Position numbers and translations under genes: made by a program
Assembly (NCBI GenBank): GCA_026389845.1
Contig: JAPLHB010000188.1
Coordinates: 51,026 to 115,025, forward strand
DNA: 64,000 nucleotides
Reading direction: 5' to 3'
Source of the DNA: Chloroflexota bacterium
GTDB taxonomy: Bacteria; Chloroflexota; Anaerolineae; CG2-30-64-16
Part shown: positions 33,858 through 56,583 of the stretch, piece by piece
Numbering within the stretch: the stretch's first letter is position 1
Layout: each line of letters starts with the position of its first letter
Notes under the pieces: model-generated
Told to the model about the DNA's origin: nothing
The model's input: only the letters and a program-made list of their open reading frames with translations
Database searches by the model: none

Positions 33858-33957
33858 GGACGACGAATGACGGCGGACCAACGACGAACGACCGCTGTCG
33901 CCAACAACCGTCCTTCGTCTTTCGTCCTTCGTCACAATGACACGGAGTTGCTGACTG

Positions 33958-34521: not shown

Positions 34522-34601
34522 GGGCAGGCACACGCCTGCCCCGGTCTTTGCGCCGCGCCGCGGTTGCGGGTATAATAAAGCTCAGTTGAAAAAGGGGGCG
34601 G

Positions 34602-35381
34602 GTGGACGTCAGCCAGGCGGTGACATTCAGGCGGTTCGAGAACGGCCGCAGCGAGACGGTCGAAGGCGCGGTCGTGCGCGAAGGCCGGGTGCGACTGCAC
34701 GTCAACGGCCGCGAGATCGCCACGCTGATGTGTACGCCTCATCAGATCGATTTATTGGCGCTCGGCTTTTTGCGCAGCGAAGGCATCATCGCGGGCCTGG
34801 CCGATGTCCGGCGGGTGGTGATCTGCCCCAGCGCTGCGTGCGTCGAGGTCTGGCTGCGCCGCGCCGAGTTCGAGCTGCCCGGCCCGCCGACAATCACCAG
34901 CGGGTGCGGCGGCGGCATCACCTTTGCCGATTTGACCGCGGCCGCGCAGCCGTTGACATCGGAATTGCGGGTGAGTGCACGGCAGTTGGGCCGCCTGCTG
35001 CGCGCCCTACAAGAAACGCAGCGAACGCGCGGCATCCACACCTCGGCCCTGGCCGAGGGCGAGACATTGCTGACCGTCGTGGAGGACGTGGGTCGGCACA
35101 ACACGATTGACAAGCTCTGGGGCTACTGCCTGACGCATGACATCTCCCCCCAGGAAAAGATTTTGCTCAGCACCGGGCGGATCAGCTCCGAGATGTTGAA
35201 CAAGGCTGCGCGCATGGGCGTGCCGGTCGTCGCCACCCGCACCTCGCCGACGAGTCTTTCGCTCGCCCTGGCCGAGGCCTGGCACGTGACCCTGGTCGGC
35301 TACGTCCGCCGCGACAGCCTCAATGTGTACACGGCGCGCGAGCGCGTCGTCGAGGAGGAGAGCACCGATGCACACTTGTGA
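34602..35381 (+). CDS. fdhD: formate dehydrogenase accessory sulfurtransferase
   Basis: MCTP, GFL..EG, TSGCG, EDVGRHN..DKL.G, GRISSEM..KAAR. Confidence 0.92.
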   Translation: MDVSQAVTFRRFENGRSETVEGAVVREGRVRLHVNGREIATLMCTPHQIDLLALGFLRSEGIIAGLADVRRVVICPSAACVEVWLRRAEFELPGPPTITSGCGGGITFADLTAAAQPLTSELRVSARQLGRLLRALQETQRTRGIHTSALAEGETLLTVVEDVGRHNTIDKLWGYCLTHDISPQEKILLSTGRISSEMLNKAARMGVPVVATRTSPTSLSLALAEAWHVTLVGYVRRDSLNVYTARERVVEEESTDAHL

Positions 35382-36022: not shown

Positions 36023-39000
36023 TTATGGCGTCACGATCACCGGCAGCCAAAGGCTCAGGTAGGTCGCCGTGGTCTCGGCTGCCAGGCTGGGCGTCCCGCT
36101 CAGATTCATCACTTCCAAGCGGTAGGTGTAGACCACGCCGCGGTGGGCGCTTTGGTCGAGCCAGGTGTAGCGATGGCCATCCGATGAGCCAGGCGAGACG
36201 CTGGGGATCACCCGAGGGTTCAGCCGCACCCAGGGGCCGTCGGGGGGGGCGCAGCGATAGAGATTGAAGCCAAGCACGCCCAATTCGCTGATGGTCTCCC
36301 ATGCCAGGGTCACACCGGCGGCCGTCGCGTCCGCGGTGAAGGACTCCAGTTCCCCCGCCGTCGGCGAGAACTTGAACTCGTAGTCCTCCACCTCGCCGCC
36401 GAAGACCACGCCGTAAGGCACAAACTCCTGGGCATATCCCTCCGGGTAGAGCCGGAACCGAGAATACAGTTGTCTGTCCGCCACATAGTTGGATGGGATG
36501 CTGAGCGTCACAGTCTGGGCTGCGCTGATCACCGTGCCCAGGTCAACCGCCTCGCCCGCATCGGAGAAGTCCCCATCATCATTCCAGTCAAACCAGGCCC
36601 ACAAATAGCCGCTGCCGCTGGCTGTCACGGTGAGGGTTCTGCTTGCGCCTGCGGTCCAGGCCCCCTGGCTCGGCGGCACGATGCCATCGTTATCGGCCGG
36701 CGTGCCCACCGCGCCATCGTTTTCGATCAGGATCGTCGGCCCCAGGTGCAGTGTGCCCGTGATCACGTGGCGTGCGCCGTCTTGCGCCAACGTGGTGTCG
36801 GCGTAAACGGTCGGCAGGTTGCCGAAGTCCAACTGCGAGACCTCGCCGGCGCTGACGCCCGTCATCTGTTGATTCGTCGCCAGGGTAAGCTCGGCGGTCA
36901 GGCCGGTCGAATCGGCTTTGTTGTCAGCGATAACCGAGCTGAACGTAAAGCCCAGCCGCTGGTAGAAGCCCACCTGGTACTTTCCTGCCGCCAGGTTCCC
37001 GAAGCTGTAGGCGCCGTTCGCATCCGAGATGCTGTACGCGGTCTGGTCATCGCCGTCTCCCCACACGCCGTTAGCACCCGCATAGTAGAGCGTGACCGGG
37101 GTATTCGCCAGCACAGGTTCGCCCGTTTCCTTGACGCCATCGTTGTCATCCTCCCAGGTGACGCCGCTGATCGAGCCCATCGTCAACGTCATGACAGTGG
37201 GGTCGCCGGTCTCCCCTGTGGCCGGATCATCGGTGGCGAGGGAGTATGCGTTGGCGCTCGCCGCGTGGCCCTGGTTGGCGAGCGTGGCAAGCTGGAACGG
37301 CAGCGGATTGTTGACCGTCACGCGGTAGGTGATCGTGGCCGAGCCGCTGCCGGCCATGCTGGCAAAGGTCACGCTGACCGCTGTGCTGCTGCTCGTGTTG
37401 CTGCACGCCGGGGCACACGTTACGCTGCCCGCAACCAGCGTGGTGTTGGGATCCGGGGTGTCGTTGTACAAGACATTGTAGGCCGTGTTCGCGCCGTTGG
37501 TGATCACCACCTGGTATTTGAGCGTGTCCCCCGGCGAGACGCCGCCGCTGCTGTCCGCATCAATGAACGGCACAATGCGCGATGAGACGTCTGAGCTGCT
37601 CAGCGCGTCCTTGGTCGCGGTCAGGCTGGTCATGGCGACCAGGGTGTTGTTGTCTGTCGCCGAAGAAGCGGGGGTGGTCTCATAGGTGGCCGTGGCTGTG
37701 TTCGCGATCACGGTCCCGACAATAGCCCCGGAGTCAACCGTTCCCCTGACCGTATAGGTGACGCTGCCGCCGGCCAGGATGGTCGCCGTATTGGCGATGT
37801 TCCCGCTGCCGTCCGCCGTGCACGTGGAGCCGCTGCTGGCGGCGCACGTCCACGTCACATCCGTGATGGCGGCCGGGAACGTGTCCTGCACGCTGACGCT
37901 GGCGGCGTCGCTTTTCCCGGTGTTGCTCACGACGATGGTGTAGATATCCCCGCGCCCCGGCGCCAGGCCCGGATTCGGGCTGCTGGTCTTGTTGACCCCT
38001 AAAGTGACCTGTGGGGTCAGGCTGCGACTCACCGAACTGCTGTTGTTGGCCTGCGCCAGGTCGGTGATGCCGGCCGGCGGGGCGACCGTGGCCGTATTGG
38101 TCAGTGTGCCCGTGGCCGCCGGAGCGATCGTGCCCTGGATGGTGTAGGTGGCCGTAGCGCCCGAGGGCAAGCTGACGGTCTCATACAGCGGATTGCTACT
38201 CCCGCTGGTGTTCGTACATGTTCCGCCCGAAGAGACACAGGTCCAGGTCACACCGGTTACGGCTGCGGGGACCGTGTCCGAAACCACCGCCCCGGTGACG
38301 GCGTTCGGGCCGTTGTTGGTCACCAGGAGCTGGTACGTCACACCATCTCCGGGTGTGGTGCCGCCCGACACAACGCTCTTGACGATGGACAGATCAGCAG
38401 CCGGGAGCAGCTCCAGGCCGGCGCCGCTCTGTCCGCTGAGGGTCTTGCCATTGGCGTCCGCATAGGTCACAGCCGCCGAGTTCGCCAGCAGGGTACTGCC
38501 GGATGGCAGCACTGTCACCACGATCTGGTCGCTGCCCGTGCAGCCGTACTGGGCGCGGGCGGTCAGCGTGGCCGTGTAGACGCCAGGCGTGGTGTATTGA
38601 TGGGTAAAGGTATTGCTCAACTGATAATCCGCCGCCGGGCTGCCATCGCCGTAGGTGATCGTGTACGAATACGGTGTGCGCCCACCGATTGCCAGCTCGT
38701 TGGCTGAGAAGACCACATCCGTATCCTCCCGGACGGTGTTGGGGGCCGAGGCAAAGGGCCGCAAGCTGGTATATGCGGCGCCCAGGTTGAACAGCAGGCC
38801 GATGTGATCTTGTCCGCCCAGGGCGGCATGGCCGCCGTGGCGATTGTTGAGCAGTTGCACGGCCAGGATGTTGATGCCCGACTGGATGCCGGGTGTGGCA
38901 GTGAAGGAATCCGCGCCGCCTGCGCCGACCTCCTGGCCCAGATAGACGCCGTTCAAGTAGATGTCGGAGACGTCATCGCCAGCCAGCTCCAGGTTGGCGC

Positions 39001-42000
39001 TCAGGCCCGTCGCGTTGAGCGGCAGGCAGAAGGCCTGGCGGAAGAAGCTGAAGTTGCCGTCCAGATGTCCGTCGGTGTTCGGCGCCACCCACTCGGCCGA
39101 GAGGTCAGCAGGGTTGGTCCAATAGCTATACTCCGTTGTACTGGAGGCAGCTGGCTGCGTCCAGCCACTGTCGTCGAACGCCGTCATGCGCGGGTTGTCG
39201 TCATAGCCCGGCGGCGGCGTGCCATCCGCGCCCTGGTAGATATCCTTGAATGCCGCACACTTGTCGAAGTCGCACCACGGTCTGGTGACTGCGGTCGTGG
39301 TGCTGGTGATAGTCACGCTGTCGCGGCCGGTTTCCGTGGAGAGGGTGGCGGTAGGCTGGGTGCTGCCGCCCGCGGTCACGCCCGGTGTGACCGCGAAGCT
39401 CACCGTGCCGCTGGCGCTGGCCGTCTTGTCACCCAGGTTCCAGGTAATGACGCCGCCGCTTTCCGTCCCACCGCCGGTGATGCTGCCTGCGACGAGCGTC
39501 GTGTTGGCTGGCAGGGTGTCCGTGACGATCGCGCTGCTTGCCGTGACGTCGCCGGTGTTGCTCCACTGGATCGTATAGGTGACCGGCTGGCCGGGATAGG
39601 CCGGCCCGGCCGCCTGCTTCTCCAGCACGATGTACGGGGCCGTGACCAGATCGCTGTCGGTGGCAGTGCCGTTCGCCGGGTTGGGATCGGCCCCGTTGGC
39701 TGTGTCGTCCGCGATCGTAACACGGTCGGCCGCCACCGAAGAGGGCAGAGCACCCGACTTGACCTTCAGGTACAGCGTAATGCTGTGCGCGCCGTCCACC
39801 GGCAGCGCTCCGATGTTCCAGATCAGCGTGCCCGCCCCTACGTCATAGGTGCTGGCAGGCGTAGAGCCGTTGTAGGTGTTCCCAGTGAGCTGCGCGGCAT
39901 CAATCTCCACCCCATTGAACAGAGTATCCGTGATCACCACACCGGCGGCGGCCTGATTTCCGGTGTTCGAGTAGGTAATCGTGTAGCGTATGGTGTCGCC
40001 TGCCAGGACCTGCTTCTGGCTATCGGTCTTGCTGATCACCAGGTCGGGCTGCGCGGTCACCGGCGTGCTGGTGGTGGAGGTGTTGTTGAGTGGCGAGGCG
40101 TCGGTAGTGGTCGTCGTGATCGCAGCGGTGTTGGCGATGGCGCTCACGCCGGCCGGCAGCGCATTGGTGATCTGAACCGTAAAGCTCACCGTCCCCGTGG
40201 CCCGGCTGGCGAGGGCGTCCAAGGACCACGTGATGATGCCACTGCCGACCGTGCCGGTGTAGGTGCCCGCGACCAGCGTCGTGTTGGCCGGCACGGCGTC
40301 CGTGATCTGCACATTCGCGGCCGGATCGAGGCCATCGTTCCTGTAGGCCAGCGTGTAGGTGATCAGATCACCGGGCATGGGCGTGGGGGAACTGGTCCCT
40401 GCCGACTTCAACACGGTCACATCGGCAGCCGTCCTCGTCGGCACGTAGAGGCTGGCCGTGTCGTTACCGGTGTCGAGGTCGGCCTGCGTCGCATCAATGA
40501 CGGCCGTGTTGAACAACGAAGCGCCGGTGATCGTGCCCACTGTGGCATTGAAGGTCAAGACGTAAGTGGCGTCGGGCGCCAGATCCGGCAGGCCCAGGGT
40601 CAGCTCTCTGGTCCCGGAGTTGTAGCTCACGGTTACGGTGGCAGAGCCGCCGTTGACAGTGAGACTGGCAGTGCCGGTATTATACGTGGTCAGCGCATCC
40701 AGCGTATCCGTGATGGTGACGCCGGTGGCTGTGGCGTGCCCGCTGTTGCCGCCGCTGAGCTGATACGTGACCGTGCTGCCCGTTCCGGCGGGCGAGGCCG
40801 AGGTAAAGGTCTTGGCGATGGTCAGGTCCGGGTGCGTCGTCACCGTGTCCACGTCCGAGACTTCGTTGTTGGTCGTGTCCTTCTCGGCGCTGGTTGTGGT
40901 CACTTTGGCGTAGTTAGATAGGGCCGTCGTGCCGTCGGGCAGCGAGCTTGCCAACTTGGCCTGCACCGTGAACGTCTTGGATGCGTCTTTCGCCAGGCTG
41001 CCCAGCGACCAGGTCCACGTGCCTGCCGGGGATTCCACCGGCGTCACGCCCGAGTCGTCGCTGACGTAGGTCAGGTACGCCGGCAGTACGTCCTTGAGTG
41101 TGACTGCGTCGGCCGTGATGCTGCCGTTGTTGACCACCGTCAGAACGTAGCTCAAGGTGTCCCCCGGCTCCGCCACGGTCTGGCTGTCGGTCTTCGTGAT
41201 GAGCAGGTCGGTTGTGCCCAGCGCCAGGTCCTGCGTCGTCGGCCCGGCAGACAGGATCGTCGGGCTGGCGCTCGCATCCTGGTAACGCGTCTGCGAGGCT
41301 GTGACGGTGGCGGCGCCGGCCGTGAAATTGCAGGCCGTGCCGGCCACGAAGCTATACGCGCCGCCGGCCCCCGTGGTGGTTGTGCATGTGGTTGAATTTT
41401 GGGTCAGCGTCACGGTGGCGCCCACGAGCGGCACGCCGGTGCCCAGGTCGGTCACCACCCCACTCAGGCTTGGGCGCACCAGGGCCAGATCCTGGACATT
41501 GGTCACGCCCGCCGTGATCGTTTTGCTGGCAGAAGTCAAGAGGTAACCTGCTGGCGCCGCGGTGGCAGCGACCGTCGCCGTGCCCGGCGCCAGCAGGCAG
41601 CCGCCCACGCCGCTGGTCACGGTGTAAACGCCGTTGGCATCCGTCGTCGCCGTGCAAATGTGACTGCCCTGGCTGTCCGTGGTCGTCACCTGCACGCTGA
41701 CATTTGCCAGTTTTGCGCCCGTATCCTTATCGGTGACCACGCCCGTCAGCGCCGTCGTCTTGACCGTGAGGCCGGCGCTGGCCATGTTGTTGGCGGAGTT
41801 GGCATCGTACAGCTCCGATGACACGCTCGCTGTGTTGGTGATCGTGCTGCCGCCCTGCCCCAGGTTGACGGTGGCCGTGATGGTCAGCCTCGCGCTGGCG
41901 CCGCTGGCCAACGCCCCCACGCTCCAGGTGGGGCTGCTGTAGCTGCCCAGGGTCGCGCTAGACGAGCCGTAGGTCAGGCCGGCGGGTAGGGGATCGGTCA

Positions 42001-44398: not shown

Positions 44399-44807
44399 GA
44401 CAAGCTCCTTGAATTCTACACAACTGAGTCACGAAGGGCGCCGGATAGGCAGAGGATGCAGGCGAGAGGCCGGTTGATCCGACCCAGCATAAGTGAAGCT
44501 TTTGTCTCACCATGACGCACAACGACTCGCCAGGACACGTAGGCCGTGGCCATGCCCGGCAACGATTTCTAAAGAGGAAGGTACCCCGGTGAGATTACGA
44601 TGGATATAACACCACGGTTAGCGGCCACGGCCGGAGCAGGTGAGATGGGAAAGTTAGCCATAGATTTTTCCTCTGCTTGGATATGATCGCCATAGGTGTA
44701 GGTTTCTGCAAATTACGTCTGATTGCGTCAAAAAAATAGCCTGATGGGAGTATACTACCATTGGAAGATAATTGCAATGGGGTACTTTACCCATTGGGTG
44801 GAGTGCG

Positions 44808-46889
44808 CTATCTGCGCGTCCAAACTGTCCAATAGCTGGCGTCCGGGGGCGTGCGGTCTTCGTAATTCACGGACTCCGACGCCCACCAGCGGCCGAAGTT
44901 GCCCTGCGCCGACAACTTCTGGCTCGCCGATGGTCGGAGTTGACTCACGACCGCGGCGGGTGGATGGCGGATCAGCCCCGCAGTGACCGCCGCGGCCTCT
45001 GGGCCGGTGTCGCCGATGCCGGAGAAGACGATGTCGAATGCCGTCGGATTCGGACGATCCACGAGCAAGTACCAGCCAGCCCCCCAGCCGGTGGTGAAGA
45101 TGGGCTGGCCCGGCGGCACGGTCTCCCGCAGCAGCGCCTGGATGGCTGTCACCTCGTCGCTGGCCGAAGCCAGCACGGCTACCGGGCCGACAGCCGTCTG
45201 AAGCCAGGTGCGCGGGGCATTTAAGTAAAGCTCGCGCGCCGTTACTTGTGTCACCAGGTTGGCGATCGTGGCGATGCCGAGCACGGCCACGGCCAGGCGC
45301 AACGGCCTCCCCGACTCCCCAAGCGTGGGGCGAGGAGGAGAGTGCGGCCCCTCCGTCCCCTCCACCGTGGGGGGAGACGGGTTCCCCCCCAGATTGGGGG
45401 GCCACCAGGGGGGCGCCTGCACCAACCACGCCAACACCGCCAACGCCGGCGCCACAGCCCCGCCGAACGCGTAGCCGGTGGTGACGTAGCGCAGGTCGGT
45501 CAGGACGGCAAAGGCCCATAGACCCCACCACGCCGGCGCCGCGCCGCGGCGCCGGGCGATCCAGCCGGCCCACAGCAACAGCGGCAACAGCGGCCCCCAC
45601 GGCAACGTGGCCAGCCACGTCAGCACGTAAACCGGGCTGAAGGCCAACTGCCCCCAGTCGCCGGTGCGCAAGACGTTCAGCACCGCCCGCGGCCCGCCGA
45701 TGAAATCGGGCGCCACGCTGCCCACGGCGAGCAGGATCAGCAGCAAAGGCCAGCCGAGCCAGCCCGTCTGATCAATCAGCCGCGGATGCGCACGGATGAA
45801 CGCGGATAAAGAAAAAAATCCGTGTCCATCCGCGCCGATCCGCGGCCTGTTTTCACCCGCAGGGGCCACGGCGCCGCGCCCGGCGCGGCGGCTCCGCCAC
45901 CAGAGCCAGCCCGTCCGATCAATCAGCCGCGGATGCACACGGATGAACGCGAATAAAGAAAAAAATCCGTGTCCATCCGCGCCGATCCGCGGCCTGTTTT
46001 CACCCGCAGGGGCCACGGCGCCGCGCCCGGCGCGGCGGCTCCGCCACCAGAGCCAGCCCGCGGCCCACGCGCTGTAGGAGCTGAGCAGCAGGCGCAGCTC
46101 GCGCTGTGGAAAGGTGAGGCCCCAGGCCCGACGTGCGGCGACCTGGTCGTAGCCGATGTAGCCGCGCCAGAGCGGTCCCCAGCCCGAGACGCTCGCCTGC
46201 CAGGCTGCGCCGGCCGCCGCAGGCAACAGCCAGGCCGCCAGCCACCAACCCCAGGCGCGGACGCCGGCCCGGCCCGCGCTCAAGACCGCGACGACGCTAC
46301 CGGCCGCGGCCAGGCCGTACTCCGGTTTGCTGAGCACGGCGGCGGCCGCAGCCAGCCCCGCGGCGACAAGCCAGGCAGTGCGCCGCGTGCTGGCCCAACG
46401 CAGCGCGGTGACGAGCGCGGCCAGGCTCGCGCCAAACCCCCACACGCTGGCCTGGGTGTAGATGTGCAAGTGCCAGCGGATCAAATCGCCCCCGACGTAG
46501 GCGCCGATCAACGCCGCGTAGGCCGTCAGCAGCAGGGCCGCTCGCGACGACACGAGCGACCGCACCGCGGTGTAGGTGAGCGGAATCGCCAGCAGCAACA
46601 GCGCGGCGTTGACCGCCGAGGCGCAGGCGGCATCCGGCCCGAACCCGCGGAAGAGCGCGGCCAACGCCTGGGCCGAGAGCGGGCCATAGGCCCACGCCAC
46701 GTCGCGGTAGAGCACCTCGCCGCGACTCATCCGCAGGGCCACCTGGAGATACCAGCCCTGGTCGGCCATGAACATGACGAAGGCGCGCCAGGCCACGACA
46801 ATCTGGGCCGTTGCGAACAGCAGCAGGCCTGCCAGCCCGGCAGGGATCAGGCGGCGATCGGCGGAGAGACGACGTAAAGGACTTGGCAT
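44808..46889 (-). CDS. GT-C-fold (ArnT/PMT-like) membrane glycosyltransferase-like protein with in-frame repeat inserts
   Basis: DQGWYL..A.RM..GEVLYRD....YGPL; L.KPEYG; many TM segments. Confidence 0.65.
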   Translation of the reverse strand: MPSPLRRLSADRRLIPAGLAGLLLFATAQIVVAWRAFVMFMADQGWYLQVALRMSRGEVLYRDVAWAYGPLSAQALAALFRGFGPDAACASAVNAALLLLAIPLTYTAVRSLVSSRAALLLTAYAALIGAYVGGDLIRWHLHIYTQASVWGFGASLAALVTALRWASTRRTAWLVAAGLAAAAAVLSKPEYGLAAAGSVVAVLSAGRAGVRAWGWWLAAWLLPAAAGAAWQASVSGWGPLWRGYIGYDQVAARRAWGLTFPQRELRLLLSSYSAWAAGWLWWRSRRAGRGAVAPAGENRPRIGADGHGFFSLFAFIRVHPRLIDRTGWLWWRSRRAGRGAVAPAGENRPRIGADGHGFFSLSAFIRAHPRLIDQTGWLGWPLLLILLAVGSVAPDFIGGPRAVLNVLRTGDWGQLAFSPVYVLTWLATLPWGPLLPLLLWAGWIARRRGAAPAWWGLWAFAVLTDLRYVTTGYAFGGAVAPALAVLAWLVQAPPWWPPNLGGNPSPPTVEGTEGPHSPPRPTLGESGRPLRLAVAVLGIATIANLVTQVTARELYLNAPRTWLQTAVGPVAVLASASDEVTAIQALLRETVPPGQPIFTTGWGAGWYLLVDRPNPTAFDIVFSGIGDTGPEAAAVTAGLIRHPPAAVVSQLRPSASQKLSAQGNFGRWWASESVNYEDRTPPDASYWTVWTRR

Positions 46890-46912
46890 GTTATCCAGTC
46901 TTGCTGCCAATT

Positions 46913-47192
46913 GTCACTCTGAGCGGATTGACGGCGAGTAGTACGTTGCGGCGTGACCCCAGCGAAGAGTCTCGTACCGAAGGTAGATGCTTCGCTGGAA
47001 TCCCGCCGTAGCGGACCTTGACTCGTTAACCCCGCTCAGCATGACAACCTGTTCAGCATAACAACTCACTGCCCCGGTACGAGCGCGAAGTCGAATTCGC
47101 CGCTCCACTGGGTCACCGTGGAGACGCCGCGGGCGTTGGCACCGCGGACGGCGTAAACGTAGTTGACGGCCACGTCGCCGATGCTGCCCGCG
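46913..47192. repeat. about 280-bp direct repeat (copy 1); copy 2 at 47881-48160
   Basis: offset 968; only about 3 mismatches seen; includes a gene 3' end plus a palindromic element. Confidence 0.9.
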
Positions 47193-47836
47193 TCGGTGTA
47201 AGCGACGTACATGAAAAGGGTCGGCGCGGGGATCACCGCCAGGGGGGACAAGCCGGGCGCGCCGGGCGTGAAGTACGGCGTCGTGCTCCGCCACACCTGG
47301 TAGCTGGTGTTTTCGGGCAGGTGCATCCATCCGAGTCGAACGCCGCCGTCCACGATCGTGGCCTGCACCACCGGGCTGGACGGCAGGGGTGGGCCGGTGT
47401 ATGTGGCGCTGACCATGTAGTCGAGATAGAGGGCCTTCAGACCGCTGAGGTCCACGTGCTCCAGCCAGTAGTAGTAGGTCACGCCGGGGGCCAGGCCGGA
47501 GCGGTCTTCGAAGATGTAGTAGTAGCCGCTCTGTGAGCCGGGATGACCGGGGATGAGCGCGGGGTTGATCTGCGTCGCCTGGGCGGGATCGGATACGATG
47601 GCCCGTTTGAGATTGAAGCCCGCTGTCTGAAGCTCGCTGACCGTCTGCCATTCGAGTCCCACGTGACCGTTTTGGGCGGTCGCCTCGAAGTATTCCAAAG
47701 AGGCGGCGGCCGGCTGCACCGGGCGCGAGTCGGAGTCGGCGCCGCCGATCCCTTGTACGCCGGACGGGAAAATCAAGGTCAGAAGCAAGAGCGCGCCGAG
47801 CGCCCGAAGCAGCAAAGTTCCGGGTGGCATCTTCAT
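47066..47836 (-). CDS. secreted protein made of the shared W.T.SE..GF.L.R domain plus a C-terminal GEFDFALVPG domain
   Basis: signal peptide, SD aaggagg, homology to the C-termini of neighbouring proteins. Confidence 0.75.
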   Translation of the reverse strand: MKMPPGTLLLRALGALLLLTLIFPSGVQGIGGADSDSRPVQPAAASLEYFEATAQNGHVGLEWQTVSELQTAGFNLKRAIVSDPAQATQINPALIPGHPGSQSGYYYIFEDRSGLAPGVTYYYWLEHVDLSGLKALYLDYMVSATYTGPPLPSSPVVQATIVDGGVRLGWMHLPENTSYQVWRSTTPYFTPGAPGLSPLAVIPAPTLFMYVAYTDAGSIGDVAVNYVYAVRGANARGVSTVTQWSGEFDFALVPGQ

Positions 47837-47881
47837 AAACCCTCCTTTGGCGATGGCGTAAAATCCACTTTTAGGCGTCTG

Positions 47882-50800
47882 TCACTCTGCGCGGATTGAC
47901 GGCGAGTAGTACGTTGCGGCGTGACCCCAGCGAAGAGTCTCGTACCGAAAGTAGATGCTTCGCTGGAATCCCGCCGTAGCGGACCTTGACTCGTTAACCC
48001 CGCTCAGCATGACAACCTGTTCAGCATAACAACTCACTGCTCCGGTACGAGCGCGAAGTCGAATTCGCCGCTCCACTGGGTCACCGTGGAGACGCCGCGG
48101 GCGTTGGCACCGCGGACGGCGTAAACGTAGTTGACGGCCACGTCGCCGATGCTGCCCGCGGGGCTGATCGCTGCGCCAGACCTGGTAGCCGGTGTTTTCC
48201 GGCAGGTGCGTCCACGTCAGCTTCATCTTGCCCGCTTCGATCAGCGGGAAGAAGGTCGGCGTGACCGGCAGCGGCGGCAGGCGGAGCTTGAGGGCTGGGT
48301 CGCCGAAGAAGATCGAGGTGTCAATCACGTCGTGGAAACCGCTGGCGTGGCTGAAGTAGTAGAGCCGGGCCGCGTCTACGGCCGGGCCGGCCCGGCCGAT
48401 GCGATCCTGGAAGATCGCCTTCACCATCCCTTGGTCCAACGTGGTCAGCGCGCTGCCGATGTGGAACCCGCTCGGCGAGACGTCGGCCACGGACCCGCGG
48501 GCGGCCGTGAGGAGCAGCGTCTCGCCCAGGCTTTGCCAGTTGTTGTCCAGGTTCATGAAGTAGCCGGCGACGCACGAGTAGGCGAAGGTCATGGGCCAGA
48601 CGGTGTTCGCGTTGAGGGTCGGCGGGTCGAAGATGTTGAACATGCTGACCGACCCCCAGCGGACGCGCGAGGCGTGGCCGAACCACTGGAGCATGAAGGC
48701 GCCGCTGTTGAGGGTCGTGGTGATGGCCTTCCGCATGTCCGCGCCCGTGCTGTAGTTGGCCGTGGCGCACGACGACGGGCTGCCGTAGTAGATCGTCTGC
48801 CCATCGTAGCCGGCCGGCAGCCAGTTGAGCCGGATATCCTCGCTGATGGCGTGGAAGTTGCCGGCCCCATCCGCGCAGTTGTCGGCCACGAAGACGACGC
48901 GGCGTTGCCAGTCGCCGGCCGGCGCGGTCGTTTCGTAGGCGATGGTCTTGCTGACGACCGCGGTCACGTCGGCGGCGGTTTGCGCGGGGATACGGCCCAC
49001 GTGCATCTCCGGCAGGTAGTCGCCCGGCCCGTCCACGCTGACGTAGCGGTTGTCGGCCGCGGTCTCCCCCAGCCAGGGGTCCACGTTGACCAGGTAGGGC
49101 GGAATGAGATTGAGCAGCGTCGTGCTGCTGGCGCCGGTGAAGTCGTAGTGCCCGTCGCCGACCAGCAGGACGTATTGCGGCCGCGGGCCGCCGGCGTTCC
49201 AGTTGTGGTAAGCAAAGGAGAGAAAGCTGCGGATCGCCTCCGGGTCGCGGCGGCCGTAGGAGAACTCGTCGTAGACGTCCTGGACGTCCACCTTCGCCAC
49301 TCGCAGGCCCTCGGCCGCGCGGTAGTCGAGGAGCGGCTGAATGGCGTCCCACAGCGAGCGGTGGACGATGGCGATATAGTCGTAGGCATTGCCGGGCGCG
49401 CCCCACGTGGTCGCCGTCTCCGGCTCGATCGCCTGGGGCGCTAACAGCCCCGCATCGGCGCTGAGGGAGTAGGTCGGGTTGGGGAGGTTGGCGTCCCAGA
49501 AGTGGATGGTGTAGGTGATGGCCTGGCCTACCTCTGGAGTCGAGGCTTTAGCCGGTGGTGCATCGGCCGGCGAGAGACCACCTGAAGGCTCGACTCCAGC
49601 TTGCGTTAAGAGGGCTTGCGCCGTCACCGTCGTAAGTTGCACCGGATGGCGGGCGTCGCGCACGTCGAACACCTTCACGGTGTCGGCCGTGAAGCCGCTG
49701 ACCGCTACCTGCGTCGTGCCGGACGCCACCGCCTCGATGTAGAGACGATCACCCGCCGCGCCTGCGGTCGCCGGATAGGTGAGTTCCACCCAATCCGGGT
49801 AGACCAGGTAGCTGGTCGAATCGGGCCGCAACCAGCGCGAGGCCAGCAGCTCGATGACGTTCGGACTCCTGTCCAGCCACGCGGCGGGCACGACGGTCGC
49901 GATCCGATAGTCTATTCCCCCGTCCCACTGGTAAACGCCCACAAGATGATCGTTAAGCTTCACCTGCACGGCCTGAAGATCGGGCGTGCTATCTATCGGA
50001 AGGCCGCCGTGGACGACGGCGCGCAACACCGCTTCGTCGGTCGTCAAGGGGTTGACCAGGGCCAGGGTGTAAGTGATGGTTTTCGACGTCGTGTCGGAGG
50101 CGCCGACGACGAGTGATTTATCGAACCAATGATCGGCTTCTTGGGGCCGGTCGGTGAACGCGCTATAGTAATCTATGTCCCGCTCGACGTGGAGCGTCTG
50201 CGTGATCACCGTGACCGGCAAGGCAGCGTCTTGCGGCGCCGTGCGCGTTGCCATACGCGCGGCGTCCGCGCCGCCCCAGGTGAACCAATAAACGTTTTGC
50301 GTCATGTATCGGCCGACATACGGCTCGGCGTAGAAGATCACCAGGTCACCGGGGTCGAAATGGCTGTCGTCTTCGCCCGTCACCTGGATATCCACCGGCT
50401 GGCCCAGGTAGGACACGGCAAAGGTGGCCGGGGCGGTCGTCGTCACCGGCACGCCGGCCGTCACCAGGTCGGCCCAGGTGAGGCGGTAGAGGCCGCGGGC
50501 GCCGGTGCGGAGGCGGAGCGCGGCGGCCGGTGAGGTTTGGATCGCGAAGCCACGAAGCGCCGCGAAGGGCACGAAGCGCGAAGGTTCATCGTCGCCGCTT
50601 CGCGCTTCGTGTTCTTCGCGCAACTTCGCGTCTTCGTGATCCGAGATTGCCACCGTCACCCGAATATCTGGATAATACCGCAGTGTCCCCGCCACGGGGT
50701 TGTATTGAAACGGGAAGACGCGCAGCGCCAGCAGCCGCCGGCCGCCTTGCCAGGCCACGCGGCCTTCCTGGACAGGCGACGCCGGGTAGAACGCGTCCGC

Positions 50801-51370
50801 CGCGTAGATGGCCGGGTCGGGGCGGTCTACGGTGGGGACGAAGTCTGGCGCATCGGACGCCGTCATTGCGAGGAGCGGGTTTTGCGATTGCGGAGCATCC
50901 CTGTGGGACGAAGCAATCTCTTGCGATGTAGGGGATTGCTTTGGCCCCAACGACGAGCCTCGCAATGACGTGTAATCGGGCACGGGGACGGACGGCAGGG
51001 GCGCGGGCATGGTCAGCGTGATCGCTTCGGCCGCGTCGTAGCTGATCGTCCAGCCGCCCTCGGCCGGTAGCTCGACGATCGTGGCCCAGACGGGCAGGTT
51101 GGGCGCGCCGGGGATGTCGTTACGGCTGTCGCCGGGCACAGCCAGCCCGGCCGCGTCGAGCGTGTAGGCGGGGGTCTGCACGCGGAGGGTGATGGATGGC
51201 CCCCCCCGCCCCCCGACGTCGGGGGGAGTCGGGGCGCTCCCAGGGGTGGCGGAAGACAGGTTTCCTCCAGGGTTGGGGGGTAGGGGGGCACTTGCACCCA
51301 TCGGCGCAGCGCCGACGAGAAGCAACAGCGCCAGTGCGATGGATAAGATGTGCGTGAGTCTCGATGTCAT
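47882..51370 (-). CDS. C25 (gingipain/PorU-like) cysteine peptidase; frameshifted near the C-terminus (ancestral stop at 48034)
   Basis: signal peptide from ATG 51370; propeptide PFQYNP; DVYDEFSYG, YVLLVGDG, GRIPA, WFGHAS (His), AYSC (Cys), FFGDPAL. Confidence 0.85.
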   Translation of the reverse strand: MTSRLTHILSIALALLLLVGAAPMGASAPLPPNPGGNLSSATPGSAPTPPDVGGRGGPSITLRVQTPAYTLDAAGLAVPGDSRNDIPGAPNLPVWATIVELPAEGGWTISYDAAEAITLTMPAPLPSVPVPDYTSLRGSSLGPKQSPTSQEIASSHRDAPQSQNPLLAMTASDAPDFVPTVDRPDPAIYAADAFYPASPVQEGRVAWQGGRRLLALRVFPFQYNPVAGTLRYYPDIRVTVAISDHEDAKLREEHEARSGDDEPSRFVPFAALRGFAIQTSPAAALRLRTGARGLYRLTWADLVTAGVPVTTTAPATFAVSYLGQPVDIQVTGEDDSHFDPGDLVIFYAEPYVGRYMTQNVYWFTWGGADAARMATRTAPQDAALPVTVITQTLHVERDIDYYSAFTDRPQEADHWFDKSLVVGASDTTSKTITYTLALVNPLTTDEAVLRAVVHGGLPIDSTPDLQAVQVKLNDHLVGVYQWDGGIDYRIATVVPAAWLDRSPNVIELLASRWLRPDSTSYLVYPDWVELTYPATAGAAGDRLYIEAVASGTTQVAVSGFTADTVKVFDVRDARHPVQLTTVTAQALLTQAGVEPSGGLSPADAPPAKASTPEVGQAITYTIHFWDANLPNPTYSLSADAGLLAPQAIEPETATTWGAPGNAYDYIAIVHRSLWDAIQPLLDYRAAEGLRVAKVDVQDVYDEFSYGRRDPEAIRSFLSFAYHNWNAGGPRPQYVLLVGDGHYDFTGASSTTLLNLIPPYLVNVDPWLGETAADNRYVSVDGPGDYLPEMHVGRIPAQTAADVTAVVSKTIAYETTAPAGDWQRRVVFVADNCADGAGNFHAISEDIRLNWLPAGYDGQTIYYGSPSSCATANYSTGADMRKAITTTLNSGAFMLQWFGHASRVRWGSVSMFNIFDPPTLNANTVWPMTFAYSCVAGYFMNLDNNWQSLGETLLLTAARGSVADVSPSGFHIGSALTTLDQGMVKAIFQDRIGRAGPAVDAARLYYFSHASGFHDVIDTSIFFGDPALKLRLPPLPVTPTFFPLIEAGKMKLTWTHLPENTGYQVWRSDQPRGQHRRRGRQLRLRRPRCQRPRRLHGDPVERRIRLRARTGAVSCYAEQVVMLSGVNESRSATAGFQRSIYFRYETLRWGHAATYYSPSIRAE

Positions 51371-51464
51371 GATATCAATCCAATGGCAAGACCCTCCCGC
51401 CGGCCCAACATCGCCCCGTGGGAGGGTCTCGTAACTTTCAGTATCCAGCTTCCAGCACTCAGCC

Positions 51465-51631
51465 CTACCGCACCACCGCCGGCAGCCAATACCAGCCAAC
51501 CGGCATCGTGACGCTGACCGTCTCCAGCGCCTCTTCGCTCCCATCCAGCCCCACGGCGGCCACGCGATAGCGGTAGGCGGCCCTGCGCGCCACATCGGCG
51601 TCGTTCCAGCGATAGCCGTAGCCCGACGGGT
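51465..51631 (-). pseudogene. remnant C-terminus of a paralog of the 52101-54824 protein
   Basis: PSGYGYRWNDADVARRAAYRYRVAAVGLDGSEEALETVSVTMPVGWYWLPAVVR*; DNA highly similar to about 52109-52266. Confidence 0.85.
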
Positions 51632-51742
51632 GCTATTCGCGTCGTTATCTTGGTAACCCCAACCCCTTTCGTAACGCTGTCCTAGTCGCTGAGAGATCAG
51701 ACGTGGGGTTTCCTTCAGAGCAATTCGTTCCTGAACCATAAC

Positions 51743-51910
51743 CTACGAAAGCTTCAGCGGCCCCAAGAAACTGCTCAACGGATTCAGCGAATCGCTGCCA
51801 GGCGCGCTGTCCTGTGCGCGCGCTTCCAACGATCGCTCCAGCACAATGGCTGGCTCCTCCCACGGCTGGCGAGACATCTGCTTCTCCGCGACTGTAGTCT
51901 GGTGTTCCAT
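51743..51910 (-). CDS. putative RiPP precursor peptide 2 (55 aa)
   Basis: SD caggagg; MEHQTTVAEKQMSRQPWEEPAIVLERSLEARAQDSAPGSDSLNPLSSFLGPLKLS; paralog of 55141-55317. Confidence 0.75.
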   Translation of the reverse strand: MEHQTTVAEKQMSRQPWEEPAIVLERSLEARAQDSAPGSDSLNPLSSFLGPLKLS

Positions 51911-52100
51911 AGGTGTATTCCTCCTGTTAGCAGGAATGACGGTTGATGAAGATTACGAATGGTGTTACAGGCGGGAGCTATCCTGCTGGCCGTTCACGAG
52001 TTCGTGGGAGATAACAACGAATCGAAGGATCGAGCGAATCGCCCCGCGACGATTCGTTTCATCCTCCGATTCGTTGTTCTATGCGCTGCTGCCGCGCCCG

Positions 52101-54824
52101 TTACTGCGCTACCGCCGGCAGCCAATACCAGCCAACCGGCATCGTGACGCTGACCGTCTCCAGCGCCTCTTCGCTCCCGTCCAGCCCTACGGCGGCCACG
52201 AGATAGCGATAGGTGGCTCCGCGCGCCACGCCGGCGTCGTTCCAGCGATAGCCGTAGCCCGACGGGGAGCCAGGTGCCTGGCTGGGGATCATGGCCGCGT
52301 TGAGCCGCGTCCAGTCGCCGCCTGCGGCATCGGCCCGGTAGACGTGATAACCCTGGCTGGATAGCTCGCTGGTCGTCTCCCACGCCACGACGATGCGGCC
52401 GCCCACGGCCGTCGCGTTCAGGCTGGAGAGCGGTGCGGCAAGGGGCGTGTCGAAGGCGGTGAAGTCGGAGAAGGTGGTTTGGGCGCCGGTGCTGAACTGG
52501 TTGCCGCTGACCGCGCCCAGCGTCTCAAAGGGATACGCGCCAGTCCATTTCTTGCCGCTCATCGCATCAGCGCCGTTCTTGTCGGCGTCCACAAAGGTAA
52601 GCGTGGCGTTATAGCCGGTGATGCTGACGACGGCTACGCCGCTGCCCGGCCAGTAACGGTCAATGTAACTGGTGGCGCTGCCGGGCTTGGAGGGGTGAGC
52701 TACGGTGGTCATGCTCAGCTTTGTGGGCGAGCTGAGCGTCCAGTAACGGTCAATGTAACTGGTGGCGCCGCCGGGCTTGTACGGGTGAACTGCATTGGTC
52801 ACGTTGAGGCAGGCCATGCCGCTGCCCCCGGTCACATTCAGGTCCATCGGCGAGTACTCGGCCGTGCCGGTGATGTCGCCGATGGGAAAGGTGAAGCTGC
52901 CCGTGGTCGCGTAGGTCTTGCACAGCATGCCCGCGCTGTCGTCAGTCACCACCATGGCCGAGGCCGACGGTGTGCCGCCGACGGATGCGGAGGAACTCAG
53001 GGTCAGAGTGTTGGCGCCCAGGATCAGCAAGCCGTTGGTGAGGCGCAGGCGTTGGCTGACGGTCTGCGTCTCGGCCAGCCGTACGGCAGAGTGGCTTGGA
53101 GAATCTGGATGAATCCGCGGAATTTCGTTGTTGACAGTCTGCGCCGCGGCCAGCGATAAGCTGCTGCGCTTGTCAATGGCCAGGTAAGCCCAGTCGGTGG
53201 CGCTGTTGATCGTCTGCACTGAGAATAGGGGGCCATTGAACACCACCTCGCGATCATTGTTGTTGAACGAGCCCGCCAAGTCGAGGGTCCAGTCGCCGCC
53301 GACGTTCAGGTCGCCGCCGCTGGCATCGCCCAGGGACAACGCACCATTGATCGTTACATCGCCGCCCACCGTCAGCGGATTGTTGAGTCCGGGAGCGCCG
53401 TAATCCATGTAGAGCGCCGAACCTGAATCAATCGTCAGACTGCCTGCCATGCTGCGCGCTGCCGTGCTGCCGTTTGGGTAGTTCAGGGTGGTGTTGTTGC
53501 TGATCTGCACGTTGGCGGGATAGCCAGCGCCGCTGGTCGCGCTCCATTCCAAGCCGCGACCGTAGGTGGTGTTGGAATTATACTTCAGCGTGGAGGATGC
53601 CCCATAGATCGGTGGGTTCGTGTTGACATACCCACCCGAGTTGATCTGAAGCGTGCCATTGACGGTAGAAATCGAAGAATCGAAATTGACACCCCCGGCG
53701 ATGGTTACGTGGTTGAAGGTGGTAGCGTTGCCTGAGACTGTGCCGGAACCGGCGAAGCTAACGGTGCCGTCGTTGGCCGTAAAGGCTCCGTTGTTCAGAA
53801 ACATTGACCCTGACTTGAGCGTCAGCGTGCGGGCAGTACTGGCTTCGCTCGTAAGCGTCTTGGATGAATTGATGACTAGATGTCTGACGGCGGCGTCCTT
53901 GTCAAGAGTGACATCATGGGCAATGGTGATCGTCTGATCGTCTGCGGGTACTTCTCCACACGTCCATGTGCCAGCCGTATTCCAATTGCCATCAGCAGCC
54001 GTAGCCCAAGAGGATGCCACTGTGTAAGAGTAGTTGGAGCCGCCATTGTTGTTCAGGTTGATCGTATAGTAGTTTGCGTCGCTTCCAGAAATAGAAGATA
54101 CATCACCTGAAGTGAAGAGGTAATACCACACCGTATTTTCAGCGGTGTTGGTACCACTCGGAATGGAGGCGCTGTAGGAGGTTCCTGAACCCGTCAACTT
54201 GACGACGGTCGAGGTGCTGAAGTTGTCTGTCGAGTAGCGAAGGTATACCGCCTGCCCTGTTGACAAAGAACCGTCCAGCGTGGCATCGACAGTCACCGCT
54301 TCGCCGGGGCAAACCGTGCCCGAAGGCGTGCGCGAGGTCGAGCTAACGCTGCGCACAGTGTCCTGGATCTCGAAGACGATGACTTTCGAGGTGCCAGGCG
54401 CGCCCGAACCCGCCGTCTTGAACACATATTTGTATGATGTGCTGCCCACATTGACGTAGTAGGCCTTGCTTCCACCCCAGCTTTGCAATCCGGTAGATGT
54501 TGCCAACGAGAGTTGGATATCACTTCCGCCGTTCGGTCCGTACTTGGTGCTGCCGGTCGAATTCCAGAAGCGGAAGTATCTGTTGCCGGTAGCCGAGTTG
54601 CTGGTCTCGAACTTGTAGCTTCCCGATCCCGATGGGGTTTCTGTCATAGCCGCGCCACTGTTCCAGCCAGCCTGTCCACTCCAGCCGTCACCACTCTCAA
54701 ATTGGTGGGGTATCTGATCGCCTGTGCCTGCATACACTGGCGCGACCGCGGACAGCCCGGCCAAGACCAGCCCCAAGATCAGCACCGCCATCGCCACGAA
54801 GTTCAAAAAACGAGTCTGTTTCAT
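52101..54824 (-). CDS. large secreted beta-rich (G/S/T/N) protein with C-terminal PLA..L / WYWLPAV domain
   Basis: signal peptide MKQTRF..VYA; SD ggagg; beta-helix-like repeats; C-terminal WETTSE..GYHVYR. Confidence 0.8.
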   Translation of the reverse strand: MKQTRFLNFVAMAVLILGLVLAGLSAVAPVYAGTGDQIPHQFESGDGWSGQAGWNSGAAMTETPSGSGSYKFETSNSATGNRYFRFWNSTGSTKYGPNGGSDIQLSLATSTGLQSWGGSKAYYVNVGSTSYKYVFKTAGSGAPGTSKVIVFEIQDTVRSVSSTSRTPSGTVCPGEAVTVDATLDGSLSTGQAVYLRYSTDNFSTSTVVKLTGSGTSYSASIPSGTNTAENTVWYYLFTSGDVSSISGSDANYYTINLNNNGGSNYSYTVASSWATAADGNWNTAGTWTCGEVPADDQTITIAHDVTLDKDAAVRHLVINSSKTLTSEASTARTLTLKSGSMFLNNGAFTANDGTVSFAGSGTVSGNATTFNHVTIAGGVNFDSSISTVNGTLQINSGGYVNTNPPIYGASSTLKYNSNTTYGRGLEWSATSGAGYPANVQISNNTTLNYPNGSTAARSMAGSLTIDSGSALYMDYGAPGLNNPLTVGGDVTINGALSLGDASGGDLNVGGDWTLDLAGSFNNNDREVVFNGPLFSVQTINSATDWAYLAIDKRSSLSLAAAQTVNNEIPRIHPDSPSHSAVRLAETQTVSQRLRLTNGLLILGANTLTLSSSASVGGTPSASAMVVTDDSAGMLCKTYATTGSFTFPIGDITGTAEYSPMDLNVTGGSGMACLNVTNAVHPYKPGGATSYIDRYWTLSSPTKLSMTTVAHPSKPGSATSYIDRYWPGSGVAVVSITGYNATLTFVDADKNGADAMSGKKWTGAYPFETLGAVSGNQFSTGAQTTFSDFTAFDTPLAAPLSSLNATAVGGRIVVAWETTSELSSQGYHVYRADAAGGDWTRLNAAMIPSQAPGSPSGYGYRWNDAGVARGATYRYLVAAVGLDGSEEALETVSVTMPVGWYWLPAVAQ

Positions 54825-55140: not shown

Positions 55141-55317
55141 TCACGTGCAAGGGCCGCCGTTCGACGTGCTCAGCGGCCCCAAGAACCCGGCAAGCGGATT
55201 CCGCGAATCGCCGCCGCCCTGGCCGCGCACTTCCAACGATCGTTCCAGCACGATAGCTGGTTCCTCCCACGGCTGGCGGGACTGTGGCTCTGGTTGCGTT
55301 GACGTCTTGTGCTCCAT
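55141..55317 (-). CDS. putative RiPP precursor peptide 1 (58 aa)
   Basis: SD caggagg; MEHKTSTQPEPQSRQPWEEPAIVLERSLEVRGQGGGDSRNPLAGFLGPLSTSNGGPCT; directly downstream of the rSAM gene. Confidence 0.8.
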   Translation of the reverse strand: MEHKTSTQPEPQSRQPWEEPAIVLERSLEVRGQGGGDSRNPLAGFLGPLSTSNGGPCT

Positions 55318-55416: not shown

Positions 55417-56583
55417 TTAATCTGCGTGGCTTTCTGTATCACGTGCCCTCAATATCCATGCCTGCACCGGCGTCTCCGGCACGGACATCCCTAAATGCTG
55501 TTCGGCATACCGCGCCTGCGCGTGACGGCAGGCCAACGAGTGGCCGGCATAGGGATCGCCGCGCTCCTTCCACGCCAGCCCCGCACACCGTCCCTCGCAA
55601 TATGCGGCGAGCGGGCAGCCGCGGCAATCGGGCAGGTTGGCAAAGGTGTGCTGGCTGCGCAACTGGCGCAGGATGGGCGCATCGGCCCAGATGTCGGCAA
55701 ATCGCTGGCGGCGCTCACCGACCAGGCGACCGGCCGGAATCCGCAGCTCGTTGCAGGGATACACCACCCCGTAGGGACTGACAAGGCAGGATGCAAGCCC
55801 GACCTGGCACGTGCGCCGGCTGGCAGCGGGCGGCTTGGGGAGAAACGGCGTTCGGTCGGCAAGGAGGACGCCGGTCATCTGGCTGGTCGAGAGCTGGTAG
55901 CGTGCGGCTTTCAGCCTGCCGTCGTCGTTGGGTGAAATCTTGAACGTTTGCTCGTAGTATACACCGAATTCTTGTGCTATGTCAAGCATGGCCTGGCACT
56001 CGGCGAGGTTCAAATCCAATAACAACGTGTTCAGCTTGACCCGTACCCCGCGCTCCTGCAGCAGCCGGACGCCCCGCAGGATGCGGCGCAGCGTATCGCG
56101 GCCGCCCATCACCGCGTCGCTCGTCTCAACCGTCGCGCCCAGCAGGCTGATGTCCACCTGTACGGGGTCGAGATCGGCCACCCGCTCCGCCGCGTCCGGC
56201 GTCAGCAGCGTGCCATTGGTCTTCAGGTCGAGCGCAAAGCCCAGCGCGCGCGCCCGCCCGGCAATCGTGAAGAAATCGCGGCGGGTCAGGATCTCCCCGC
56301 CGGTCAGGGTCAGCCGCAGCGCGCCGGCCGCGGCCAACTGCGCCAGCACGTCCAGGCACTCGGCCGTGGTCAGCTCTGGCTCGGCCCGCGACACGTTGTA
56401 GCACATTACACAGGCCAGGTTGCACCGGTGCGTCAGCTCCCAGAGGATCGTGTAGGGCACGTGCTCGGCTCGGAGGCGACCCAGGAGCGCGTCGTAGGCG
56501 TCCGCAGGGGTGGCACGCTCGCCACACGCGTCGAACTGGGGGGTGGGAGGCTGGAAGCTGGAAGCTGGAAGCTGGTCGGTCAC
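55417..56583 (-). CDS. radical SAM/SPASM domain protein (PqqE/MftC-like)
   Basis: WELTHRCNLACVMC, TGGE, TNG; SPASM C..G...CLVSP.G.VYPC ... C..C.....C.G.C. Confidence 0.93.
   Translation of the reverse strand: MTDQLPASSFQPPTPQFDACGERATPADAYDALLGRLRAEHVPYTILWELTHRCNLACVMCYNVSRAEPELTTAECLDVLAQLAAAGALRLTLTGGEILTRRDFFTIAGRARALGFALDLKTNGTLLTPDAAERVADLDPVQVDISLLGATVETSDAVMGGRDTLRRILRGVRLLQERGVRVKLNTLLLDLNLAECQAMLDIAQEFGVYYEQTFKISPNDDGRLKAARYQLSTSQMTGVLLADRTPFLPKPPAASRRTCQVGLASCLVSPYGVVYPCNELRIPAGRLVGERRQRFADIWADAPILRQLRSQHTFANLPDCRGCPLAAYCEGRCAGLAWKERGDPYAGHSLACRHAQARYAEQHLGMSVPETPVQAWILRARDTESHAD

Follow-up and report, generated by a model that had tools for sequence, protein, structure and literature searches.

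A stretch of 64,000 nucleotides from a Chloroflexota bacterium (GenBank assembly GCA_026389845.1, contig JAPLHB010000188.1, positions 51,026 to 115,025 of the forward strand), referred to here as the window, carries a gene for a PorU-like cysteine peptidase of family C25 among genes for secreted proteins that share a domain with a predicted fibronectin type III (FN3) fold. In the portions of the literature considered here, PorU is the only C25 enzyme known as a sortase and is described only in Bacteroidota's type IX secretion system (T9SS) (PMC5445135, PMC5121618), where it removes the C-terminal domain of T9SS cargo (PMC5121618). The best explanation of our data is that the window holds one copy of a module recurring in Chloroflexota, whose client proteins end in the shared domain followed either by a short tail of the type YLP or WLP or by a transmembrane helix with an arginine-rich end. 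With somewhat better than even confidence, we propose that this is a T9SS-independent enzyme-client module, in which the PorU-like C25 enzyme recognises the dedicated C-terminal domain with its FN3 fold and probably cleaves the client next to it. Docking is predicted by a model of the complex, while we infer the cleavage, the cleavage site and any transfer of the product. In full-text literature, excluding supplementary files and subscription journals, nothing was found on C25 peptidases or YLP tails in Chloroflexota.

Identification of a PorU-like C25 peptidase

The open reading frame (ORF) at 47882-51739 matches the Pfam profile Peptidase_C25 (PF01364) with an E-value of 1.9e-77 and 261.5 bits against a cut-off of 23, the match covering ORF residues 788-1152 and profile positions 1-374 of 374. 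Translation probably begins at Met124 (base 51370), and a signal-peptide-like stretch comes next; here and below, signal peptides were assigned by eye and not by a predictor. From the N-terminus, the signal-peptide-like region is followed by a stretch weakly similar to Propeptide_C25 and then by PorU-like N-terminal domains and the catalytic domain; a C-terminal FN3-like domain, disrupted in the present assembly, completes the protein. The genome contains seven strong C25 loci, and the catalytic His and Cys columns are invariant across all seven paralogues; in an alignment of 49 C25 sequences the His is invariant and the Cys is at least 90% conserved. A signal-bearing C25 peptidase with an intact His (WFGHAS) and Cys (AYSC), as described in the original prediction, is thus present. 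One additional C25-like match beside a domain gene (contig C213) covered only the C-terminal part of the Pfam model (8.2e-9) and was not counted; on visual inspection the sequence looks like a caspase-like domain of a different kind.

The NCBIfam PorU models (NF033707/NF052324) gave 186.5 bits against a cut-off of 420 and 178.8 against 450, and the protein is therefore below both. A profile built from the 49 C25 sequences matched the PorU structure 6za2 with an E-value of 3.2e-45, aligning profile positions 84-825 with chain residues 14-789. Judged by these profile comparisons, the enzyme most closely resembles PorU, which it does over almost its entire length (about 740 positions), and is PorU-like in architecture, without being a member of the T9SS PorU family.

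The shared FN3-like domain

A domain of about 95 residues is common to three secreted proteins of the window and to one gene remnant. The four copies were aligned over 36026-36400, 52104-52478, 47396-47740 and 51468-51632 (the remnant) with 33-40% identity to the first sequence, which bears out the shared domain of roughly 100 residues that had been noticed before. A profile made from the three window copies retrieved 23 ORFs from the 6.84-Mb genome, or 24 after iteration, and the domain match is therefore far beyond chance. In about 18 of the domain ORFs the domain is followed by about 27 residues ending in [WYF][LIV]P...R/K at the extreme C-terminus, and in two it lies near the N-terminus of a protein with a C-terminal membrane helix.

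The AlphaFold model of the domain is a beta-sandwich (pLDDT 85.5). Foldseek searches against the PDB returned 41 matches at E <=0.001, most of the top-ranked ones being FnIII domains (best 4wtx, 8.2e-5), and a T9SS C-terminal domain was named in no entry title among these matches. The best PDB sequence match was an Fn3-like protein (3mpc, 1.1e-4). None of 21 domain copies matched an FN3-type Pfam or NCBIfam model at E 1, and the nearest Atlas clusters are unnamed and carry no Pfam family. On the evidence of the structural model, the shared domain has a fibronectin type III fold.

Association of the peptidase with the domain

In the bacterium's own genome, a domain ORF is found no more than 3.9 kb away at six of the seven C25 loci; the remaining locus is situated roughly 200 bp from the end of its contig. 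Nine of the 23 domain ORFs are located within 5 kb of a C25 catalytic domain, a distance that takes in 0.96% of the genome, compared with one of 79 ORFs that have a YLP-type tail without the domain; the adjacency therefore belongs to the domain and not to the tail. The C25 and shared domains are also found fused in one ORF, in one C25 locus of this genome (C154) and at four related loci (L031, L035, L071 and L110).

Related loci were collected by a scan of one genome per species, and the 79 best C25 loci were all in Chloroflexota records, mostly from Anaerolineae orders. A domain ORF was found in 43 of the 79, among which 32 had it within 1 kb, with only 11 more out to 10 kb. In the 32 close loci, the domain is on the same strand as the C25 gene in 29, in the same ORF in 6, downstream in 14 and upstream in 12. 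A phylum sample of 301 genomes was then searched for C25 (E <=1e-10) and for the domain (E <=1e-8). C25 was detected in 44 genomes and the domain in 45; 39 carried both, 5 C25 only, 6 the domain only (all with matches weaker than 1e-11) and 251 neither (Fisher p 4.6e-37, with kinship among the genomes ignored). In this count, of the kind that had been suggested as a check of the original prediction, the domain and C25 co-occur across the phylum. The two features also vary together within families f4, f38 and f56, and in family f2, where C25 is present in 1 of 19 genomes, that genome also has the domain, while one further f2 genome has a weak domain match only. Both features occur in 38 other genomes, and in 23 of these a pair lies within 10 kb; in all 12 loci fetched from such genomes the domain gene is beside the C25 gene or both are in one ORF.

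Apart from the fusions, these 12 loci show two layouts. In one, a large client ending in the domain and a YLP-type tail is followed by a C25 gene with a YLP-type tail of its own; in the other, the gene for a small protein made up of a signal peptide, the domain and a membrane anchor either overlaps a short C25 gene that has no tail or is separated from it by 4 bp. Taken together, these data support a functional tie between the peptidase and the shared domain.

Predicted complex of the peptidase and the domain

Residues 330-1165 of the window C25 protein were modelled together with residues 30-150 of the protein encoded at 47066-47836, and our own alignments were supplied. The complex scored 0.68 and the best of three controls 0.00; 58 of 80 solved complexes and 2 of 110 mismatched pairs scored at least as high, counts that hold only roughly because the alignments were our own. 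Three runs agreed in at least 85% of contacts, and the partner pLDDT was at least 82. On the enzyme side the modelled interface includes residues 692-698 and 725-728, in which the catalytic His and Cys lie, and portions of the PorU-like N-terminal domains. On the side of the partner it takes in residues 11-17 (V-Q-P-A-A-A-S) and 69-77 (the PGS loop) as well as the outward face of the W.T.SE strand, that is, the motifs that the original prediction had picked out. No solved complex of this type came up in profile searches, which returned from the PDB PorU on its own (6za2) and gingipains with their own pro-domain, and there is accordingly no obvious template for the interface. The model supports binding of the domain to the C25 enzyme, short of demonstrating it, and is of a kind that does not distinguish a substrate from an inhibitor.

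The WLP/YLP C-terminal tails

The window tails are WLPVIVTP, WLPAVAQ and WLPAVVR, in agreement with the earlier statement that three of the domain-bearing sequences end in WLP and two further residues. Two NCBIfam models of a "YLP-box putative sorting motif", NF050076 (sort_motif_YLP) and NF053834 (ultrashort_CTERM), match weakly in the genome; WLPVIVTP and WLPAVAQ match neither of them at E 1, and the window tails, judged by their position and alignment, are in register with the YLP tails of paralogues. Tails of paralogues and orthologues do pass the cut-offs of both models, that at the related locus L116 scoring 18.2 against 15 and 15.9 against 10; the C154 C25 protein has a tail scoring 16.1. 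These models are 10-11 positions long and also match 10 and 11 of 14 control genomes; being unspecific, they were replaced by a positional count of a regular expression and by a DNA pattern with a backward-read control. Among ORFs of 200 residues or more, the motif [YWF][LIV]P[LVAIMTF] begins 7, 8 and 9 residues before the C-terminus in 36, 21 and 18 cases, compared with 0-7 ORFs per offset at offsets 14-60. The count suggests that the genome holds roughly 70-90 tailed proteins, most of which are without the shared domain and a few of which are histidine-kinase look-alikes. The WLP tails of the window look like members of this general YLP-box class. Four of the seven C25 paralogues of the genome end in a YLP-type tail, as do 28 of the 77 complete C25 ORFs of related loci.

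A second type of ending was observed in many related domain proteins (e.g. L028, L045, L069 and L071), in which a strand start P-T-A-V-x-L is followed by a hydrophobic helix and RRRR. This three-part tail resembles a classical sorting signal, and such helix-type tails are borderline on generic anchor models, the LPXTG_anchor cut-off being barely reached by one of five scanned (16.5 against 15.9) and MYXO-CTERM scoring 18.6 against 20.

Relation to known sorting systems

The genome assembly is 93.9% complete with 8.1% contamination. No Omp85 match was found in it, whereas 7 of 14 control genomes were matched, and the setting is therefore not that of a T9SS; this Chloroflexota bacterium appears to lack an outer membrane. 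SprA_N and Por_Secre_tail likewise gave no match in the genome, a weak negative since none of the controls matched either, and PorV and PorK-N were not searched.

Like PorU, the enzyme has a C25 catalytic domain with a His/Cys dyad, matching N-terminal domains and a signal-peptide-like N-terminus; as in the PorU system, the clients bear a C-terminal beta-sandwich and some enzyme copies carry a client-type C-terminus. The differences are that the predicted client domain has an FN3 fold, whereas the T9SS C-terminal domain is described as 3+4 Ig-like (PMC11285876), that the enzyme scores below both NCBIfam cut-offs and occurs in a Chloroflexota lineage in which no Omp85 was found, and that the genome encodes seven paralogues, most of them with a domain-bearing neighbour. 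Compared with the gingipains RgpB and Kgp, the catalytic domain matches at 9e-27 and 7e-17 and the pro-domain weakly at the N-terminus (5.9e-7); the differences are that gingipains align in the catalytic part only, whereas PorU aligns along almost the entire enzyme, and that the enzyme here is without a T9SS C-terminal domain.

The window tails share with the NCBIfam YLP-box an aromatic-L-P-hydrophobic motif within the last 7-9 residues and the absence of a membrane helix, although the two scanned window tails match neither model and the model name states no sorting enzyme. With the sortase/LPXTG and exosortase/PEP-CTERM systems the locus has in common an enzyme gene beside its clients, a class of domain proteins ending in a hydrophobic helix and an Arg-rich tail, and a giant protein with pilin- and adhesin-type domains; the enzyme families are unrelated. 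The genome holds two true sortases. One of these only two sortase-family genes (contig C205, 13493-13975) is located between a C25 gene and a domain gene.

Proposed mechanism and alternative explanations

In the proposed module, the Sec pathway would export both client and enzyme, and the C-terminal tail or helix would keep the client at the cell surface. The peptidase is predicted to dock on the conserved face of the domain, where the P-x-A start, the PGS..G loop and the outward-facing side of the W.T.SE strand lie, and would then cut the client next to the domain, so that the passenger is released or, as with PorU, passed to an envelope polymer. A more far-reaching form, which we put forward tentatively as a possibility, is T9SS-independent anchoring, in which a PorU-like C25 transpeptidase would recognise the FN3-fold domain, cut at the P-x-A boundary and covalently move adhesins or enzymes to an envelope or sheath polysaccharide; duplications of the entire module would have given rise to the paralogous pairs. 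The genes for a polysaccharide tyrosine kinase and a radical SAM protein, found repeatedly upstream of the loci of one clade, could then supply or modify the acceptor.

Several observations weigh against the module as proposed. In 36 of the 79 related loci no domain ORF was present in the stretch examined, many of these loci being incomplete, and three genomes (G016, G052 and G105) have a clear C25 (E 1e-55 to 1e-63) with no domain match at 1e-8. Related genomes are not independent, and the Fisher p-value given above therefore overstates the case. The small proteins of the second layout have no passenger to release, so that a role as anchor or inhibitor would fit them better. The domain is also far from confined to these loci. 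Its profile gave 108,433 matches at E <=0.001 among 1.84 billion representative proteins, the best of them tandem arrays in which as many as 46 stretches match; such proteins would fall to pieces if every P-x-A boundary were cut. Among eight example proteins that were inspected, one has nine tandem domain copies with a YLP-type tail at the end, two end in a membrane helix, and in two others a genuine Por_Secre_tail (31.1 and 33 bits, the Pfam cut-off being 27) comes after three or four copies. Elsewhere, then, the domain is a general stalk-like module that precedes several kinds of C-terminal anchor, and the original idea that it is the counterpart of the T9SS C-terminal domain is not upheld, given its predicted FN3 fold, its tandem arrays and its position upstream of Por_Secre_tail. 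The same applies to the P[TL]A linker, which had been taken to mark a cleavage site: P[TLA]A is the start of the first strand of the domain and recurs at each repeat boundary, and its conservation alone therefore does not mark a site of cleavage.

It is possible, and in our estimate rather unlikely, that the FN3-like domain is a non-substrate partner of the enzyme, a tether or a latency cap comparable to the gingipain pro-domain, with nothing cut at the domain. Small proteins consisting of signal peptide, domain and anchor, encoded 4 bp from or overlapping short tail-less C25 genes (L111, L112 and L114, and C33 in the bacterium's own genome), would suit such a role, as would the C25 proteins that hold domain and anchor in one chain; the modelled interface includes the stretches of the catalytic dyad, as the position of an inhibitor would, and the weak Propeptide_C25-like stretch of the enzyme indicates that latency control is part of the family. 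The complex model itself gives no distinction between substrate and inhibitor, and most copies of the domain stand at the C-terminus of large and varied passengers of up to about 3000 residues, the layout of a sorting client and not of an inhibitor. We regard it as unlikely that there is no specific link at all, so that the C25 proteins are ordinary secreted proteases on the YLP-box route, the domain is a generic stalk, and their adjacency reflects the clustering of surface genes together with common ancestry. The very wide and repeated occurrence of the domain and the relatedness of the sampled genomes agree with this explanation, and the YLP-type tails of 4 of 7 own and 28 of 77 related C25 proteins make the enzymes look like cargo; it leaves unexplained why domain ORFs and not tail-only ORFs cluster near C25 genes, why domain ORFs peak at less than 1 kb from C25, why several families of the phylum have the pair, with the features co-varying within families, and why the modelled pair scored 0.68 when its controls scored 0.00.

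The C25 enzyme might instead sort the whole YLP-box class, clipping the ultrashort tail and attaching the protein like other clan CD transpeptidases, which we consider very improbable. The tail pattern at DNA level (Y-[LF]-P-h-h-x-[RS]-stop, with backward-read controls) gave 14 matches against 0 controls in the bacterium's own genome, wider patterns having a poor signal to noise (e.g. 78 matches against 37 controls). It was enriched in the 44 C25-positive genomes (225 matches against 47 controls) and not in the 257 C25-negative ones (101 against 160), and at least five matches were found in 14 of the 44 compared with 1 of the 257. That single genome (G242, 97% complete, in 3 contigs), however, has five matches and no controls without any C25 at E 0.01, and four of its matches have a true stop codon closing ORFs of 569-985 residues. 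Six genomes of genus g53, conversely, have C25 and the domain with no excess of the pattern, although their tails may differ in sequence or codon use. The tails of G242 and the distance of tail-only genes from C25 genes argue against C25 as a general tail-processing enzyme. The YLP-type tail is a tag in its own right and a more general one; our data do not link it to the peptidase. The enzyme-client module, with the FN3-like domain and not the tail as the element recognised, is the reading that we retain.

Genes of the locus and integrity of the assembly

All five ORFs on the minus strand between 36 and 55 kb were confirmed, together with the gene remnant; the original observation thus holds in every respect, while its interpretation is supported in part. 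The features of the locus and its upstream neighbours are listed in Table 1.

Table 1. Features of the C25 locus and neighbouring genes (window coordinates)
Feature	Coordinates	Strand	Remarks
PorU-like C25 cysteine peptidase	47882..51370	-	within ORF 47882-51739; Pfam, NCBIfam and PDB profile matches
C25 catalytic domain	48284..49378	-	His1022 (WFGHAS), Cys1056 (AYSC), counted from the first ATG of the ORF
281-nt repeat entered out of frame by the C25 ORF	47880..48160	-	99% identity to 46912-47192
Small secreted protein, 256 aa	47066..47836	-	signal peptide, shared FN3-like domain (about 47396-47710), second FN3-like domain
Secreted protein, 907 aa	52101..54824	-	C-terminal shared domain and WLPAVAQ tail (about 52104-52440)
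Remnant of deleted paralogue of 52101-54824	51465..51632	-	last 55 codons and stop, ending WLPAVVR
Adhesin-like protein, 2791 aa	36023..44398	-	C-terminal shared domain (about 36026-36367), tail WLPVIVTP
Polytopic membrane protein, 700 aa	44808..46910	-	no Pfam or NCBIfam match
Radical SAM/SPASM protein	55417-56583	-	upstream neighbour of C25 locus
HprK-related-kinase-like protein	57454-58371	-	upstream neighbour of C25 locus
Wzc-like polysaccharide tyrosine autokinase	59079-60737	-	upstream neighbour of C25 locus

The adhesin-like protein contains 12 DUF11 repeats and isopeptide/SpaA-type, PKD, SdrD_B and GEVED domains by Pfam and NCBIfam, and its GEVED domain, a domain that usually adjoins C-terminal sorting signals, directly precedes the shared domain. 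The second FN3-like domain of the small secreted protein is of the kind that closes C25 orthologues (GEFDFALVPG). The N-terminal part of the 907-residue protein has 42% identity over 255 residues to the gene adjoining the C19 C25 paralogue of the same genome. The remnant contains a 165-nt copy (51468-51632) that is 93% identical to the 3' end of 52101-54824, and the region upstream of that gene is duplicated just above the remnant (51754-51875 and 55170-55282; 83-86% identity), which reveals a former tandem paralogue whose middle has mostly been deleted. Around this duplicated region, contigs in the sequencing runs that cover the locus break or fold back. In another part of the genome (contig C197, 94-2853), a domain copy loses its frame partway and is either a pseudogene or an assembly error.

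The C25 ORF is frame-shifted at 48160/48161, where the 281-nt repeat begins. This repeat is 99% identical to the 3' end of the gene at 47066-47836, and in the other frame it encodes an ending in GEFDFALVP, the same ending that closes 11 of the 77 complete related C25 ORFs. In each of two runs (X1 and X2), one contig covers the C25 gene, diverges from the sequence of the window at precisely 48161 and runs on for 112 (X1) or 171 (X2) other letters, and the frame break is therefore probably an assembly mis-join at the repeat. Both runs come from a single study, possibly the source of the window itself, and are therefore not independent support. The pieces listed from the contigs of the runs leave 47921-48160 and 51505-51595 unbridged, gaps that are uninformative since contigs only were used. 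The catalytic domain is unaffected by the break at the 3' end either way.

The polytopic membrane protein was considered as a partner, either a sorting enzyme or a glycosyltransferase, and was rejected, having no family match and no relative in the 91 related loci; its matches in its own genome are limited to an inserted repeat. Inside this gene, 45749-46042 consists of two in-frame tandem copies of 147 nt with 97% identity, and numerous short ORFs elsewhere in the genome, on other contigs, match the unit of about 49 residues, which therefore looks like a dispersed repeat element inserted into the gene. ORF clusters like the radical SAM/SPASM, HprK-like and Wzc-like genes recur in 29, 27 and 15 of the 91 related loci, the window neighbours having been assigned to these clusters by size, position and family and not by direct comparison. 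The loci concerned belong mostly to close relatives of the window's own C25, and the upstream radical SAM and kinase genes would fit an acceptor in the form of an envelope polysaccharide. A family of 404-residue ORFs of unknown function recurs at 13 of the 91 related C25 loci. On the low-coordinate flank (33249-35381) the window contains housekeeping genes, peptide deformylase and FdhD/NarQ, and the locus is therefore not an obvious mobile island.

Conclusions

The pairing of C25 with the FN3-like domain suggests a system for protein processing or anchoring in Chloroflexota without the secretion machine with which PorU usually works. Some of the genomes that carry the pair are complete single-contig assemblies, which makes the idea directly testable; assemblies of this kind are usually obtained from cultures. 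If the proposal is true, the sortase chemistry of C25 would be older or more portable than T9SS, and an FN3-like family that is at present unannotated, together with many proteins labelled only as C25 family peptidases, would be given a function. It would also offer a way of explaining how very large surface proteins are processed or attached in filamentous Chloroflexota, among them abundant lineages of wastewater and hot springs.

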